A stretch of DNA of 39,952 nt. Source: a virus. Taxonomy: Duplodnaviria; Caudoviricetes. Below are positions 1 to 39,908 of this stretch, in pieces (the stretch's first letter is position 1; each line of letters begins with the position of its first letter). The notes beneath the pieces are model-generated. The model did no database searches. It was not told where the DNA came from and worked only from the letters and a program-made list of their open reading frames with translations. Position numbers and translations under genes: made by a program. Where the stretch lies: positions 1 through 39,952 of the IMG/VR virus record IMGVR_UViG_3300020156_000056. The stretch is one strand, 5' to 3'.

Positions 1-202
1 ATTCATCAATCCGTGCTTCCCGCTCCACCCGCTTCATCTCGGCTTCAAAGAGAGCTACAGTTTGGTCAACTTCTTCGCTATAATCTGTTCCCTCAAGAAC
101 TTCGCCTGTTTCATCTCTGGTTAATATGTGATCTGGCTCACCGTCCGGACTTTCTTCAAGTCCCCATATTTCAACAAGCTTTTCGCGTAGTTCCTTATTC
201 AT
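1..202 (-). CDS. 5' part of the hypothetical protein also found at 38902-39198 (truncated by window edge)
   Basis: Near-identical to 38997-39198. ATG at 202 with AGGAG RBS upstream. Confidence 0.75.
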   Translation of the reverse strand, partial: MNKELREKLVEIWGLEESPDGEPDHILTRDETGEVLEGTDYSEEVDQTVALFEAEMKRVEREARIDE

Positions 203-241
203 ATAATCTCCTTAACTTGTAGGATTATGTTAATTGGTTAT

Positions 242-344
242 GGTTAAAACACAGGTAAGTGATGGTAAGACCTTAATGCGCAACTCGGGATTTGGTATCC
301 ATGTTTCATCTTCCCTACTTACCATCACAGAGCTATGTTCAACC
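242..344 (-). ncRNA. Hairpin cassette A (putative structured RNA)
   Basis: Inner stem GTGATGGTAAG (259-269)/CTTACCATCAC (318-328) with a 48-nt loop. Outer stem GGTTAAAACACAG/CTATGTTCAACC, whose mismatches become G-U pairs on the minus strand. Confidence 0.6.
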
Positions 345-347
345 GTA

Positions 348-436
348 GTTAAAGACAGGGTGCTGGAAGGTCGTGTGTTTGTCATGCATTGCTGCAAGTG
401 GTCTTTATCGGAACCTTCCAGCGCACTATCCTCAAC
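348..436 (-). ncRNA. Hairpin cassette C (putative structured RNA)
   Basis: Inner stem GTGCTGGAAGGT (360-371)/ACCTTCCAGCGC (413-424) with a 41-nt loop. Outer stem GTTAAAGACAG/CTATCCTCAAC gives 11 bp with 3 G-U pairs on the minus strand. Confidence 0.6.
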
Positions 437-451
437 CGTGAAGGCTATCCA

Positions 452-511
452 AACAAGGCATTGCCGGAGTTGTGACACTCCAGTGCTCGTAAGCACCGTT
501 TATGCCTTATT
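452..511 (-). ncRNA. Three-way-junction structured element D
   Basis: Closing stem AACAAGGCAT/ATGCCTTATT with two internal hairpins. The UNCG-capped stem covaries with the copy at 39731-39790. Confidence 0.55.
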
Positions 512-549
512 GAGTATTCGGCACTCTCCGACAATGTGATCCTTGTTCT

Positions 550-629
550 TGGGAGTGGCAGGACTCGAACCTGCGCTAGGACTACCCTTTCGGGATTCGG
601 TTCCAGCTCCTCATTACGTCAACACTCCC
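550..629 (-). ncRNA. tRNA-like RNA (acceptor stem and T arm, no canonical D or anticodon arm)
   Basis: Minus strand reads GGGAGUG...GCAGG-UUCGAGU-CCUGC-CACUCCC-A: a 7-bp acceptor stem, canonical T arm and internal CCC-GAAA-GGG hairpin. No 5-bp anticodon stem with a 7-nt loop could be found. Confidence 0.65.
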
Positions 630-824
630 GTGGCTGGGCTTCGTTTTACGACTGAAGCCCCAAGCGTCGTCACGGTTACCACTTGGCTGGTTGGCTCCAT
701 TTACTGCAATCGTGTGGGTAAAGACACCATTACACACCAAGGGTCAAATATGGAGGGGTTGGGTTGTTTTCTTTTTTCAAAGTCACCTCCCTTCTGTTTA
801 ACGTATTGCTACTTACCTAAGGGG

Positions 825-1061
825 CTAAAGTTGTACCATCAATTTATCTATGGTTTCGTAGCCTTGTTCTTGCACGATGTTTAAAACTTGTTCTAACGGT
901 AAACTTAGCTCCTTAGCGATTTGAGTTTCGTCGTAGCCGTAGTCAAGCAGTCCCCCTATTTTGAGTTCTAAGGTTTTCCAATAACCAAGAAACTTCCAGA
1001 CTGGCACCTTGGTTGCATCGGGTTCAATATTTGATTTCCAGCTCACACGTTTTCCTTTCAT
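825..1061 (-). CDS. Hypothetical protein, possible small helix-turn-helix
   Basis: 78 aa, co-oriented. The segment YDETQIAKELSLPLEQV resembles an HTH. Confidence 0.55.
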   Translation of the reverse strand: MKGKRVSWKSNIEPDATKVPVWKFLGYWKTLELKIGGLLDYGYDETQIAKELSLPLEQVLNIVQEQGYETIDKLMVQL

Positions 1062-1082
1062 CTTACTGTTATAGGGTGGGGG

Positions 1083-1259
1083 CTACTCAGTTTCAGGTTT
1101 TTGCTTTAATTCATCATCACTGTTATTTTCGGCTTCTAAAAGTTCCAAGTAATATACCGCTAATTTATCCGCTGAACTGCGAGTCAAAAACCCATCCACT
1201 TTAAGCTTGTTACTTTCATTAATTGTGTATTCGATAACAATATTTGCTATTTTGTCCAT
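1083..1259 (-). CDS. Small hypothetical protein (58 aa, MDKIANIVIE...)
   Basis: Read by hand. AGGAG RBS, ATG at 1259, TAG at 1083. Confidence 0.6.
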   Translation of the reverse strand: MDKIANIVIEYTINESNKLKVDGFLTRSSADKLAVYYLELLEAENNSDDELKQKPETE

Positions 1260-1482
1260 ACTTTTCTCCTTTGCGGGCTAGACCGCTTAACTAATTACTT
1301 TCTTACGCTTCTTTGGTTTACCGTTATAGAACTGGTTATGGGCTGGGCTAATCATAAAAAACTCCTTTACGTACTTCATTTGCTAAATATCTGTTGTATT
1401 TACACTCTGACTTATTACAAATGGAGTCTTTCCAGCGGCTACAGTGTAGGGTTTCAAGCCACTGGGCTATTGCTTCGGTCAA

Positions 1483-1638
1483 TTATTTATCCTTGAGTTT
1501 TAGCTCTAGGCCACCGAAAAAAGAGAGGCCGCCAATAACTAAACAAATCATTATTCCTAATGGAGTTTTAGCTTGAGCTGCTATAGCTATAAGATAGATG
1601 CCTTCAATCAATAAAAAGTTAGTTATGAAGTCTTTCAC
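1483..1638 (-). CDS. Small membrane protein (51 aa)
   Basis: GTG start right after the stop of the upstream gene. Two hydrophobic stretches. Confidence 0.5.
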   Translation of the reverse strand: MKDFITNFLLIEGIYLIAIAAQAKTPLGIMICLVIGGLSFFGGLELKLKDK

Positions 1639-2738: not shown

Positions 2739-3188
2739 TTATTGATACGAATTTCCTTCTGTAGAGCTTTCAGGCTCCTCTGTGTTCGAGCCATACTTAA
2801 TTCGGTACTGTTCAAGTGACATACTTCCTTTCTGTGTATTACAGCTCCAGCAGCAAGGCTGAAGATTCTCATGTTCATATCTAAGTGATGGATTGCCGCT
2901 ACGGGGTTTTACGTGGTCTAAAGTAGTCTCTATGGGTGTTAAGTACTTGCCACATAGATAGCACTCATATGACTCCTGCGCGTGATCTATGAACCATTGG
3001 CGGCGAGTGATGCGCCAGAGCTTGATAGCTTTGCTGCGGCGCTTAGGGACTACTTTTGTATAAGTCTTGTAGTTTAAGCTCCCCTTCCATCCGTACTTTT
3101 TGAGATACGGGTTTTTCCAGCACTGGTATGGGTAGTGATTTGTTCCTTCGCAGTATTTGCATGGTTTTGGTTCTGTACGCATTTGCAA
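2739..3188 (-). CDS. HNH endonuclease with zinc-binding motifs
   Basis: CxxC...TLDHVKPRS...ENLQPCCWSCNTQKG HNH signature. The exact start is uncertain. Confidence 0.88.
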   Translation of the reverse strand: MQMRTEPKPCKYCEGTNHYPYQCWKNPYLKKYGWKGSLNYKTYTKVVPKRRSKAIKLWRITRRQWFIDHAQESYECYLCGKYLTPIETTLDHVKPRSGNPSLRYEHENLQPCCWSCNTQKGSMSLEQYRIKYGSNTEEPESSTEGNSYQ

Positions 3189-4428: not shown

Positions 4429-4445
4429 AGCACCTCCTTACGTAA

Positions 4446-4551
4446 TAACAGCGCTTGAAACGGTAGTAAGTTGGTACAGAATGCCCATATACCGCAATGG
4501 CGTCGCTAAGACTTCTTGAACATTCTCTTACTACCGATTGAGGCGCTGTTA
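4446..4551 (-). ncRNA. Hairpin cassette (second array, unit 1)
   Basis: Outer stem TAACAGCGC/GCGCTGTTA. Inner stem CGGTAGTAAG (4461-4470)/CTTACTACCG (4527-4536). 56-nt loop. Confidence 0.6.
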
Positions 4552-4570
4552 CTGGTTTATGTTTAACTGG

Positions 4571-4747: not shown

Positions 4748-4771
4748 ATACTCCTCCTTTTATTTAACTAT

Positions 4772-5137
4772 GGTTAATAAAGCGCTAGAAAACCAAGCGT
4801 AGGTGTCATTAGTGCCTAGCCTAGCAATGCGTTCTTACGGTTAGCATCGGGCAGTGACTTTAATGCTCTGAGGCCACATGCTGCCTACGCTTGGATATGT
4901 AGCGCTCTATTGTCTTGGTTAATAAGAGACAGCAGCGAAGGTACGCTACTTGATATAAGCTTTCGACGGCTATCTCGAGTTCTCATCTACCGGCCGCACG
5001 TTCACATACCCTCGATGTTGCCTCTTATTATCTTGGTTAATACAGGCCAGGTGAATGACGGTAGGCACACTCTGTTACAGCAAGCCCCTAACGAGTATGG
5101 ATGCTGGCATCCTACCGCCAATAATCTAGCCTGTATT
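4772..5137 (-). ncRNA. Three tandem hairpin cassettes (4772-4911, 4917-5030, 5035-5137)
   Basis: Each starts GGTTAATA on the + strand. Inner stems are CCAAGCGTAGG/CCTACGCTTGG, CGAAGGTA/TACCCTCG and TGACGGTAGG/CCTACCGCCA, with loops of 80, 63 and 45 nt. Most mismatches are G-U on the minus strand. Confidence 0.65.
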
Positions 5138-6461: not shown

Positions 6462-6522
6462 GTGTCTCAGTCATCTTGAGTTGATATAGGCCAGGTTGCC
6501 AGCAATAAATGCTGGACTTTGA

Positions 6523-6711
6523 CTAGTTAAGCGAGACTAGTTCTTTGACTTCGCTTCTAATGGCAATAATCGCATCGGCGTGTTCACGTAATGCTATTGC
6601 CATATTAATTAGTGCTTCTTCTCCGAAGTTATCTAAGAAAAATAGTCTAATATCGTAAGCTGAATGATTCTCGCTCAAGAATTCTTGTATCTCTTGTCTT
6701 GAAGTTGCCAT
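6523..6711 (-). CDS. Small hypothetical protein enclosed by an inverted repeat
   Basis: ATG at 6711 with AAAGGAG RBS, 62 aa. Flanked by a 26-bp imperfect IR at 6483-6508 / 6723-6748. Confidence 0.7.
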   Translation of the reverse strand: MATSRQEIQEFLSENHSAYDIRLFFLDNFGEEALINMAIALREHADAIIAIRSEVKELVSLN

Positions 6712-6781
6712 GATTGTCTCCTTTATTAGTGACAATCTGGCCTATATCGTTTTGAGTAGTTTTAAAGCCTCTACTCACGGG

Positions 6782-7667: not shown

Positions 7668-8570
7668 TTAAGGTTCGTTCCAAAACTCTGAAGGTATCTT
7701 AGCACTAGTGGTATCGTTTGTCAATGGGTTTATTGTTTTAGGCGCATAGATGGCGTGTTGCTGTACCTTATGGGACTTCGACATGTGCAGGTAACGCATG
7801 GCGACGTTCACATTTACATGCCCCATCATCTTCATAATATCGTATATGTTTGCACCACTTTCCGCTAGATAGGTACCAAAGCCATGCCGTAAGGAATGGG
7901 GGTTAACATGTTTAATGCCAGCCTTTCTAGAGGCAAGTTTTAGACAAAGGCTCACAGCGCCGCTATGTATTCTCTGTCCGGTAGTAGAGCGGAATATATA
8001 CCCTGTAGTGATCTGCTCCATCATTAAGTAGAGTTGCAAGTAATCTGCCACTCCCTGGTCTATAACTACATCATCATGCTTACCGCCTTTACGGATAATA
8101 TGGATGGTATTTTCGGTGATGTCTTCAACGGTAATATTAATCAGTTCGTTAATGCGCATACCTGACGTAAACAGCAAAAGGACTATAAGCCGATCCCTTG
8201 AACGGGGTATGACTTCTAATAGTTTATTGACTTCTTCAGGGGTTACGTAGCGTATGACTACCTGTTCACGTTTAGTCTGTACGACATGCTCGCTTAATAC
8301 CTGAGTCCAACCGTTTCTGTTCTGGTAAAAGATAAAGCTGCGGATAGAGGATGAATAACGGGCTAAGGTGTTACGCTTTAACCCTTCCGCCTCAATCTGG
8401 ACAAAGAAAGCGTCTACTTTATCGAGGGTAAGCTCATCTAAAGTCTTAATGTGTGCTGTTTGGAAAAACTGTTCTAAATTAGAGCGATAGGTGGTGATGG
8501 TAGTAGGAGAAAAGCCTTTCACCTTACGGGCAAAAGTCAAATAGTCTTCAACTGCCTTACGTATCTCCAT
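7668..8570 (-). CDS. Tyrosine recombinase/integrase (XerC/D-like)
   Basis: N-terminal SAM-like domain. Catalytic residues R (SGMRINEL), K (RKGGK), HxxR (HSLRH), H (MGH) and Y (MRYLH). Start placed at ATG 8570 (GAGG RBS); the ORF is open to 8624. Confidence 0.93.
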   Translation of the reverse strand: MEIRKAVEDYLTFARKVKGFSPTTITTYRSNLEQFFQTAHIKTLDELTLDKVDAFFVQIEAEGLKRNTLARYSSSIRSFIFYQNRNGWTQVLSEHVVQTKREQVVIRYVTPEEVNKLLEVIPRSRDRLIVLLLFTSGMRINELINITVEDITENTIHIIRKGGKHDDVVIDQGVADYLQLYLMMEQITTGYIFRSTTGQRIHSGAVSLCLKLASRKAGIKHVNPHSLRHGFGTYLAESGANIYDIMKMMGHVNVNVAMRYLHMSKSHKVQQHAIYAPKTINPLTNDTTSAKIPSEFWNEP

Positions 8571-9057
8571 CTGTCCACCTCTTGACCTATCTACAGTAAT
8601 ACCATTTTGTTGTATATCTTGCATATAGCTTATGTGTGATATTCATCAAATCTTCATAAAGATAAATATCAAAGTCCTTCAGTAGTTGGGAATGGTTATG
8701 TTATTAAAAACACAAAGCAATAGCTCCCTGCCGGTATTAAGGAGGCAGGTTGATGAGCTATGACTTGGATACCACAAAGCAACGTCTCTAAGGCGCTTAG
8801 TCTTTTCCTGCCGTATTTGCATTCACAGGTACGCTTTTTTTAAGTCTAACCAAAGTTAAACAGGTGAACATTAAAACACCTCAAGGAGCACTATCGTAGA
8901 GTCTCTAGTCTAAGCTTTTCATGCCCACTACCGTAGTATCACTTCTATCTCATGCATTGAGCAGGTCAGGGGTTATTTTAGATACCCCAAAACTATCAAT
9001 ACACGAAGCAATAAACCCTCCGTAGATGTACCCATGCCTGAATACCAGGCTATGTGG

Positions 9058-9237
9058 TTACTTTGCTAATTTCTCTATTGCAAGGAGTCCTTTTGAAAGA
9101 GCCTCCTTTAACTGTTGTAACTGGAAATCTTTGTCAGTACCGATAGATTCGGGTTCGATTGTCTCATACGATTTATTGGCAATCTTAAGAGCGTTCGTGA
9201 GTGAACGCCGAACTTTTTCTAGGTCTTCTTTTTGCAT
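9058..9237 (-). CDS. Small helical protein enclosed by an inverted repeat
   Basis: GGAGG RBS, ATG 9237, 59 aa. Flanked by an IR at 9022-9046 / 9262-9287. Confidence 0.65.
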   Translation of the reverse strand: MQKEDLEKVRRSLTNALKIANKSYETIEPESIGTDKDFQLQQLKEALSKGLLAIEKLAK

Positions 9238-9348
9238 TGTGCCTCCATTATAAGCCATCTCGGTAATGCAGGCACAGGTACATCTACTGTCTACAGGGCT
9301 GTTATCGTACAGCCGGACGTAGTATCCAAGTTTTTAAGACTCGGGGTA

Positions 9349-39198: not shown

Positions 39199-39237
39199 AA
39201 AATCTCCTTAACTTGTAGGATTATGTTAATTGGTTAT

Positions 39238-39349
39238 GGTTAAAACACACGGAGCTGGCAGTGACCTTGCAAGTTATCGAAGTCGCTTAATCATACTGAA
39301 TGTGCACATTATGATTGCTGCTTCGCCCTGCCAGCTCTATATGTTCTAC
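39238..39349 (-). ncRNA. Hairpin cassette B (present only in the right-end copy)
   Basis: GGTTAAAACACA leader. Inner stem GAGCTGGCAG (39252-39261)/CTGCCAGCTC (39328-39337) with a 66-nt loop. TATGTTC trailer. Confidence 0.6.
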
Positions 39350-39352
39350 TGT

Positions 39353-39460
39353 GGTTAAAACACAGGTAAGTGATGGTAAGCCACCAGGCCTTTCACCTGA
39401 TTGACACACGAAGGTTCAGCTCGGTACTTTGACCACACTTACCATCACAGAGCTATGTTC
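39353..39460 (-). ncRNA. Hairpin cassette A' (same stems as cassette A, different loop)
   Basis: GTGATGGTAAG (39370-39380)/CTTACCATCAC (39438-39448) identical to cassette A, with an unrelated 57-nt loop. Confidence 0.65.
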
Positions 39461-39617
39461 TAGCGATTTCATCGCCACATACACAGCGAAGTTTAATGGC
39501 TACCAAGTTATGCCACTTAATTTGTCCTTTTGCGCCATCACCAGCATAGTGTGTGTCTCTATTTGTGAACTTCCATTCAACAACTATCGTGTGTTCGTGA
39601 ACGTGTTTTTTGTGCAT
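39453..39617 (-). CDS. Small protein (54 aa, MHKKHVHEH...RCVCGDEIART) present only in the right-end copy
   Basis: Read by hand. GAAAGGA RBS. The stop codon lies inside the outer stem of cassette A'. Confidence 0.65.
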   Translation of the reverse strand: MHKKHVHEHTIVVEWKFTNRDTHYAGDGAKGQIKWHNLVAIKLRCVCGDEIART

Positions 39618-39828
39618 ACCATTCCTTTCGTTTATCCGTTACACTTCAAAATCTGTTTAACAGAAGTGAATGTTACAGTTGGGCTATTTGTTAATTACAG
39701 TTGTCTATCCTCAACCGTGAAGGCTATCCAAACAAGGCATTGCCGGAGTTGTGGTCACGCAACCCTCGAAAGAGCTGACAATGCCTTATTGAGTATTCGG
39801 CACTCTCCGACAATGTGATCCTTGTTCT

Positions 39829-39908
39829 TGGGAGTGACAGGACTCGAACCTGCGCTAGGACTACCCTTTCGGGATTCGGTTCCAGCTCCTCATTACGTCA
39901 ACACTCCC
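39829..39908 (-). ncRNA. Second copy of the tRNA-like RNA
   Basis: Identical to 550-629 except for one T-stem change (G-C to G-U) that keeps pairing. Confidence 0.62.

Follow-up and report, generated by a model that had tools for sequence, protein, structure and literature searches.

We describe a family of phage-encoded, tRNA-like RNAs in which the acceptor stem and T arm of a tRNA enclose an invariant core, for which a kink-turn junction is the best reading. Our literature search returned no earlier description of this core, and it sits inside an RNA of a known broad kind. Our preferred reading, to which we give a probability of about 40%, is that of a tRNA-processed, non-decoding phage RNA acting as a putative decoy for a host protein that reads the top half of tRNA.

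The element was examined in a 39,952-base virus record (the window: the whole stretch analysed), which is scored as complete and carries its genes on the minus strand. These include a terminase, a capsid protein, an amidase and a tyrosine integrase (7668-8624, about 7 kb from the tRNA-like element), and the amidase suggests that the host is a bacterium. Searching with the integrase protein returned 14 matches, none naming a host, and no integrase relatives were found in viral contigs. Two soil metagenome runs contain the window (0.96 and 0.89 of sampled words); no RNA run stood among the runs listed as containing it, which is uninformative on expression, and no sigma-70 promoter match was found in window positions 1-1400.

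The two contig ends repeat each other, and the hairpin cassettes adjoining the element differ between them. A second copy at the other end (39829-39908, minus strand, 71.7 bits with covariance model R1) differs by a single base, so that G.U replaces G-C as the first T-stem pair. The sequence-only reading had already seen this change in what it called a second copy; the copies are two alleles of one locus. Depth on the run X1 contig halves over 224-455 (7.1, versus 13.7-14.8 either side), run X2 holds the first allele on a single contig (131-1294), and run X4 carries the letters of the second allele at 475-501 and 558, this read-based evidence covering the first contig end. The parts of the first allele are as follows.

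550..629, minus strand: whole tRNA-like RNA gene, 80 nt including the discriminator; 73.4 bits with R1
623..629, minus strand: 5′ arm of the acceptor stem, forming 7 of 7 pairs with 551-557
618..620, minus strand: 5′ strand of stem I (GAC), pairing with 580-582
616..617, minus strand: 5′ strand of the predicted kink-turn C helix (-2b, -1b), pairing with 595-596; putative assignment
611..615, minus strand: predicted kink-turn bulge AAU (615-613), then G1b and A2b (612-611), assigned from the pattern
599..610, minus strand: D-like hairpin with NC helix GG/CC; loop with invariant GG (604-603) and purine 15 (607)
595..598, minus strand: non-bulged strand of the predicted kink-turn, G2n and A1n (598-597), -1n and -2n (596-595)
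585..594, minus strand: CC..GG hairpin at the anticodon-arm position, with a GAAA loop in the window
575..584, minus strand: 2-nt junction (584-583), 3′ strand of stem I (582-580), variable-loop-like linker (579-575)
558..574, minus strand: T arm with canonical T loop
550..557, minus strand: 3′ arm of the acceptor (551-557) and discriminator A550; CCA not encoded, trailer AAGA

Two features of canonical tRNA (RF00005), a 7-bp acceptor and a T arm with canonical T loop, are present, and the 5-bp anticodon stem with its 7-nt loop is missing. The acceptor (629-623/557-551), discriminator A (A550) and T arm (574-558) are as first described, and the GAAA-capped hairpin is likewise found on the minus strand. 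ARAGORN called 0 genes in the window, and Rfam gave no match to the element at E ≤ 1, the tRNA, tmRNA, Y RNA and hammerhead models included; both checks had been proposed beforehand, and neither tool scored the element as an ordinary tRNA with an anticodon. The core pattern occurs twice in the window against 0.02 expected occurrences and is not due to chance. As an isolated 88-nt stretch the fold is modestly stable (z -2.05), with 7 of 200 shuffles equally good.

A first pattern returned a homologue in a 285-kb phage, with the same layout of the 48-nt middle and a wholly different, fully paired acceptor. Scanning for GTAATGAG plus a T loop gave 118 loci, 99 of them family members, and a second scan in which GTAATGAG was not required gave 110; among its 38 distinct sequences with acceptor and T arm, 34 carried GTAATGAG, 1 carried GTAATAAG and 3 carried neither. 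A third scan, with no T-loop term, drew 120 loci from 13 of the 64 parts of the collection (about 620 estimated overall), from which we extrapolate that roughly 270 stored stretches carry the family. The strict core occurred at 52 of these loci: 48 have the full shell of acceptor and T arm, 2 combine a T arm with a decayed acceptor, and the remaining 2 lack a shell. Because nearly all strict-core loci have the full shell, the core needs the shell.

The family comprises at least 102 distinct sequences, whose covarying acceptor and T arm strengthen the initial description of a tRNA mimic lacking an anticodon arm; two further members come from metagenome contigs (L320, L321). R1, built from 67 sequences, scored members at 55.6-86.4 bits and every other match, ordinary tRNAs included, at 34 bits or below. 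Five members were counted from the model alignment and not from pattern parsing, and L002, an allele of L001, was left out of the junction-parsing and 15/48 counts. On 10 member loci among the 118-locus scan ARAGORN forced inconsistent calls, and Rfam searches of 15 member loci gave no match to the element except a below-threshold beta_tmRNA match overlapping that of L163; standard annotators thus miss the family or assign it false anticodons. Four loci (L086, L106, L177 and L190) show a second type of tRNA shell, in which GTAATGAG stands with a different middle. They score 21.8 bits (L086) or are unscored, are left out of all counts, and are possibly a distant variant of the family.

Across 101 aligned members, 93.4% of 2221 cells pair, 455 of them changed on both sides; with partners slid out of register, 27-49% pair. 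The alignment behind these values was fitted to the model, and kinship is not accounted for in the shuffle control. All 13 of the strongest mutual-information pairs are model pairs. The acceptor is 97.9% paired, with compensatory changes at all 7 pairs, and its pairs 1-72 to 6-67 vary freely across the family. Stem I is 97.0% paired, with compensatory changes at both modelled pairs; the GG-loop hairpin is 95.0% paired (first two pairs 101/101), the CC..GG hairpin 89.1% (first two pairs 101/101 and 100/101) and the T stem 84.8%, its first pair often being open. The alignment thereby establishes five helices and the invariant core.

This architecture departs from the first description in the lower half. 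An unpaired D-like loop had been described where the GG-loop hairpin pairs in 95% of cells over the 101 members, and a helix GCUGGA/UCC(U)AGC had been proposed around the GAAA hairpin. Folded by itself, the window sequence has this helix in its minimum-energy structure (-30.1 kcal/mol, with the family fold at -23.6), and the nearest relatives can form it too; its first pair is the candidate 15/48 contact. Over the whole alignment of 101 members, the helix pairs in only 55% of cells, a lower share than that of the GG-loop hairpin (95%) or stem I (97%). These two structures exclude it, and their support across the family argues against it.

The CC..GG arm measures 9-14 nt in 95 of 100 parsed members, and long inserts of up to about 45 nt occur in L333, L364, L374, L394, L396 and L439; an extra hairpin stands in the linker before the T arm in L357, L361, L381 and L441. 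Because the hairpin varies in length and has no 7-nt anticodon loop, it is a non-decoding arm: it cannot decode.

The core strand after stem I reads G U, A A U, G A, G, and the opposite strand C, G A, a purine and a pyrimidine. A kink-turn is reported to consist of a 3-nt bulge followed by G.A and A.G pairs (PMC4382518; PMC5061560), and the arrangement of a 3-nt bulge, then G1b.A1n and A2b.G2n, is found in the window and in 80 of 101 members. The letters of the non-bulged strand are GA in 80, AA in 17, TC in 3 and TT in 1 of the 101, and the four T-variants form Watson-Crick or wobble pairs with the opposite GA, which supports the register of the core. The C helix, made of 2 weak base pairs, is 99.5% paired and shows one-sided changes only (G.U/G-C and U.G/U-A); the NC helix covaries.

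The 3b.3n pair is G-C in 99 of 101 members, and a kink-turn with G-C at this position, the U4 type, is reported not to fold in ions alone (PMC4382518). None of the 50 carrier records holds an L7Ae-family gene, so that folding must rest on tertiary contacts or on an unknown protein. Folding through a tertiary contact is reported for the SAM-I kink-turn (PMC3651934), and by analogy the core would fold in the same way. The U4 snRNA kink-turn shares with the family a 3-nt bulge, the G.A and A.G pairs and G-C at 3b.3n (PMC4382518), SAM-I a kinked, capped helix whose loop makes a long-range contact (PMC3651934), and the k-junction of the TPP riboswitch a kink-turn set in a three-way junction (PMC4005666). 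Unlike all three, the family has a tRNA shell, a C helix of 2 bp and a third helix that leaves after -2n and not opposite the loop; its fold is a prediction from sequence, and the 50 carriers have no L7Ae gene.

Several positions point to a tRNA-type elbow. The GG loop letters occur in 74 of 75 distinct shell-positive sequences, unfiltered, the T loop is invariant, and position 15 is a purine in 97 of 100. The window itself has C575 in the linker as the candidate 48 partner of G607. Among 15/48 combinations (n = 100), A15/U48 occurs 55 times, G15/A48 14 times and G15/C48 9 times, and C48 stands beside G15 in 9 of 10 cases (Fisher p 2e-4, a statistic that ignores kinship; position 14 tracks C48 equally, in 9 of 10). 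In a kink-turn geometry the lower helices would run back beside the D-like helix, and stem I would have its open end close to positions 8 and 48, the attachment points of the two linkers.

The same junction could be taken for a type I hammerhead-like, self-cleaving three-way junction inside a tRNA shell, a reading that we consider very unlikely. Type I hammerheads have junction strands of 7, 4 and 2 nt and the invariant core letters C3, G5, G12, A14 and A15.1, and tRNA-linked ribozymes occur in phages as theta ribozymes. The element has junction strands of these lengths, G.A pairs in tandem and an invariant U, after which a non-G usually stands. Against this, no member has the hammerhead core letters at positions 3, 5 and 15.1, 59 of 100 have G at position 14, and Rfam gave no hammerhead match in the window or in 15 member loci. 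G12, reported as the general base of the hammerhead (PMC2553840), is missing from 21 of 100. Comparison by eye with twister, HDV-like and box C/D motifs showed misfits in strand order or register, and these readings were dropped.

Among known RNAs, the closest in kind are RNA1, RNA2 and RNA3 of phage T5 and the species 1 RNA (rnaC) of T4, annotated as 'tRNA-like stable RNA with unknown functions'. They too are phage-encoded, lie in tRNA clusters and have an acceptor and T arm without a normal anticodon arm. In contrast to the family, they lack the GUAAUGAG core and a predicted kink-turn, and their middles are unrelated, in lengths of 139, 144, 125 and 73 nt overall. None exceeds 21.3 bits with R1, which is below ordinary tRNAs. 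T4 RNAC is described as a late RNA of unknown function (PMC9697503). With a tRNA top half, no decoding arm and a place in tRNA clusters, the family belongs, judged by its sequence, to the broad kind of phage tRNA-like stable RNAs.

YrlA Y RNAs of bacteria and phages are another tRNA mimic without an anticodon loop. The family differs from them in having no Rfam match, an ordinary tRNA strand order, an open acceptor end and no Ro60/TROVE gene in any of 50 carrier records (0 of 8 near-complete). Fremin et al. 2023 list non-canonical tRNA-like candidates derived from IMG/VR, some only partly overlapping ARAGORN calls (PMC10690425); supplementary files 3-6 of that paper do not contain the core motif, and the family may be among its 10,006 uncharacterised candidates. 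Our literature search, with subscription papers mostly outside its coverage, returned no description of the family or of a kink-turn in a phage tRNA-like RNA.

The tRNA-like domain of tmRNA also combines an acceptor and T arm with no anticodon arm, and a free domain of this type could bind SmpB and interfere with ribosome rescue. The missing anticodon arm fits such a role, and the L163 member stands 20 nt before a separate, permuted tmRNA gene (1288-1508, plus strand), with SmpB genes in 2 of 48 carriers. Yet the family lacks an encoded CCA and a tag frame, G3.U70 occurs in 3 of 102 members and not in the window, and ARAGORN and Rfam found no tmRNA match on the element itself. The early observation that G3.U70 and a tag ORF are missing was correct. 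The tmRNA-like layout proposed beside it is not supported in detail: the family has a paired D-like hairpin and a kink-turn-type core where tmRNA has an open D loop and a P2-like helix. We consider an SmpB sponge highly improbable.

The element is a phage-restricted accessory gene spread among unrelated phages. Relatives of the window's terminase lack it in all 29 whole records (0 of 6 near-complete) and in 80 relative loci, and the window's capsid protein was not found in any of 47 other carriers, 7 of them near-complete. Most records in both sets are fragments; together the two results point to accessory spread. Among 185,579 cellular genomes we found 5 pattern matches, of which 3 are members, all on short MAG contigs: L312 adjoins phage-family genes, L315 shares flanking proteins with the phage locus L102, and the third is L314. 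Each of 49 other carrier records has a single copy above 55 bits.

A decayed tRNA or tRNA-derived attP, which the tyrosine integrase of the window phage might suggest, is already largely refuted, and we regard it as the least probable of the readings considered. Structure is conserved over the whole length, the two acceptor arms change in a compensatory manner, and 7 kb separate the element from the integrase gene. Conservation of the 3′ half alone, which an attP would predict, was not seen: the 5′ half is as conserved as the 3′ half. BLAST of window positions 420-720 against 50,697 annotated phages matched only 22-34 nt on the T-arm side, and two other members searched against the same phages likewise gave T-arm fragments only. 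Separately, a perfect 24-bp inverted repeat (7512-7535/9385-9408) flanks the integrase gene and a 66-aa ORF; it is a candidate site for recombination or for a repressor, and an attP is better sought there than at the tRNA-like element.

The surroundings of the element bear on its maturation. ARAGORN placed tRNAs in the flanks of 30 of 61 long-flank loci and none in the other 31; all 86 flanking tRNAs lie on the strand of the element, some 4-8 nt away. C74 opens the trailer of 84 of 102 elements versus 92 of 96 neighbouring tRNAs (background 19%; one subgroup was re-registered by one base for this count), the window's own trailer lacking it. An encoded CCA was seen in 1 of 108 elements, compared with 9 of 98 tRNAs. 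PolyA_pol, the CCA-adding family, was matched in 11 of 48 phage records (10 above cut-off), with the gene at most 1.3 kb from the element in five records that are possibly close kin. The largest protein family shared among the flanks reaches 8 of 61 loci, and no recurring partner or target gene was found in them. The same flanks hold 55 distinct tRNA shells not called by ARAGORN, with unrelated middles of 25-159 nt; many share the acceptor AGTCAGG/CCTGACT and a tRNA-like D arm, which in many of them we take to be tRNA-Leu-like, and a few long ones are possibly mis-paired. Examples are:

L111 1276..1396, minus strand: tRNA shell in the flank
L099 1655..1776, plus strand: tRNA shell in the flank
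L138 946..1114, minus strand: tRNA shell in the flank
L169 410..465, minus strand: tRNA shell in the flank

These neighbours invite the view of the element as an aminoacyl carrier, charged by a synthetase that does not read the anticodon and serving as a non-ribosomal amino-acid donor or in EF-Tu sequestration. LeuRS, chosen on its identity rules, is the candidate: A73 is the discriminator in 65 of 102 members, A15/U48 is the commonest combination, and many neighbouring shells have the Leu-like D arm noted above. The free variation of acceptor pairs 1-72 to 6-67, another discriminator in 37 of 102 members and the lack of a recurring transferase gene nearby all speak against it, and we hold charging to be improbable.

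The main rival to the decoy is a cis-acting role, in which the element would be a processing or stabilising handle whose end cuts by RNase P and 3′ nucleases release neighbours or protect cargo, the kink-turn core being one way to a stable elbow. Such a role agrees with the shared strand and tight spacing with tRNAs, the tRNA-type trailer, the 55 variable-insert shells of these flanks (many sharing one acceptor), the inserts at two positions in some members, and the first hairpin cassette of the window, which begins 2-3 nt after A550. But each record has one copy although arrays offer many junctions, most members are free of cargo, ARAGORN placed no tRNA beside 31 of 61 loci, and the core letters are invariant across unrelated phages beyond what cutting needs. 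RNase P is reported to measure from the elbow without needing the D loop (PMC4919913), so a mere handle would not need the invariant core; the arrays also contain shells of simpler build (L169, L182). Because the core is conserved beyond cutting needs and stands once in many-junction arrays, we favour a trans-acting decoy over a handle, which we treat as a possible but doubtful alternative.

We infer the steps of the decoy pathway, from transcription through maturation and folding to the final role, as follows. The RNA would be co-transcribed with neighbouring tRNAs or cassettes, cut by RNase P 5′ of the acceptor, trimmed at its 3′ end and given CCA by host tRNA enzymes. Its core would then fold as a kink-turn, turning the lower domain back along the D-like helix, so that the GG loop could dock on the T loop and position 15 meet 48, as in the tRNA elbow. 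Having no 7-nt anticodon loop, the RNA would not decode; mature and probably uncharged, it may titrate in trans a host factor that reads the elbow or acceptor. Hosts encode tRNA-targeting defence, and the likeliest target would be an enzyme of that kind or a sensor of uncharged tRNA. Anticodon nucleases, by comparison, are unlikely targets because there is no anticodon loop. A bolder reading, which we put forward as speculative, is that the family represents a natural RNA fold not described before, a tRNA top half on a kink-turn three-way junction, which has spread sideways among unrelated phages as an RNA-only counter-defence, soaking up an acceptor- or elbow-reading enzyme or sensor and carrying swappable cargo at the anticodon position.

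The function of T4 species 1 and T5 RNA1-3 has been a puzzle for decades, and the family offers a short, strongly conserved example of the kind. Its structural prediction is specific enough that single-base tests could separate a decoy from a processing handle. If the kink-turn is real, it would be a new means of forming a tRNA elbow where no anticodon arm exists, and the RNA would offer a natural, compact scaffold open to inserts at two positions.

In the window phage, the element is also a possible processing signal for the hairpin array that follows it. Cassettes of this type occur at five places:

241..549, minus strand: array of three long hairpin cassettes with variable loops, downstream of the element; differs between alleles
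4440..4556, minus strand: hairpin cassettes
4771..5137, minus strand: hairpin cassettes
39237..39465, minus strand: hairpin cassettes
39705..39828, minus strand: hairpin cassettes

Each cassette has an outer helix of about 12 bp, an internal loop of 4-6 nt and an inner helix of 10-12 bp, a shape that suggests RNase III sites. The loops are 37-80 nt long and unrelated, and most cassettes end in TTAACCA or TTAACTA; between the two alleles the loops are swapped and the stems identical. A role in processing the array is countered by the geometry, in that the RNase P cut falls upstream (5′ of 629) and only the 3′ cut after A550 opens the array, and by the absence of a hairpin array beside other members in the fetched loci, where no cassette homologues were found. 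A conserved 23-mer of the downstream cassette had 0 viral matches, and no antisense target of the loops was found in the window or the fetched loci. Elsewhere in the window, inverted repeats at 6483-6748 and 9022-9287 enclose whole ORFs of 70 aa (6523-6735) and 66 aa (9058-9258), as if the cargo of a cassette could be a gene. In the second allele, a 54-aa ORF (39453-39617) is inserted into the cassette array.

Other structured sequences accompany members of the family. At 11 loci (L093, L100, L101, L135, L136, L173, L213, L259, L266, L281 and L288) a short hairpin lies upstream of the element and stops just short of the acceptor, by a few bases; its loop is of the GGAAAGAC or GAGAGAC type and is preceded by TGAC. 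Relatives of the window subtype have inverted repeats of 17-25 bp around or beside the element, or else an acceptor lengthened to about 13 bp:

L149 1170..1186 and 1553..1569; L321 2929..2953 and 3135..3159; L320 940..1035: inverted repeats or extended acceptor

Just downstream of the L321 member, at 1518-1919 on the minus strand, we noted a 370-aa ORF in which a 9-nt unit, coding for three residues, recurs about 30 times or more.
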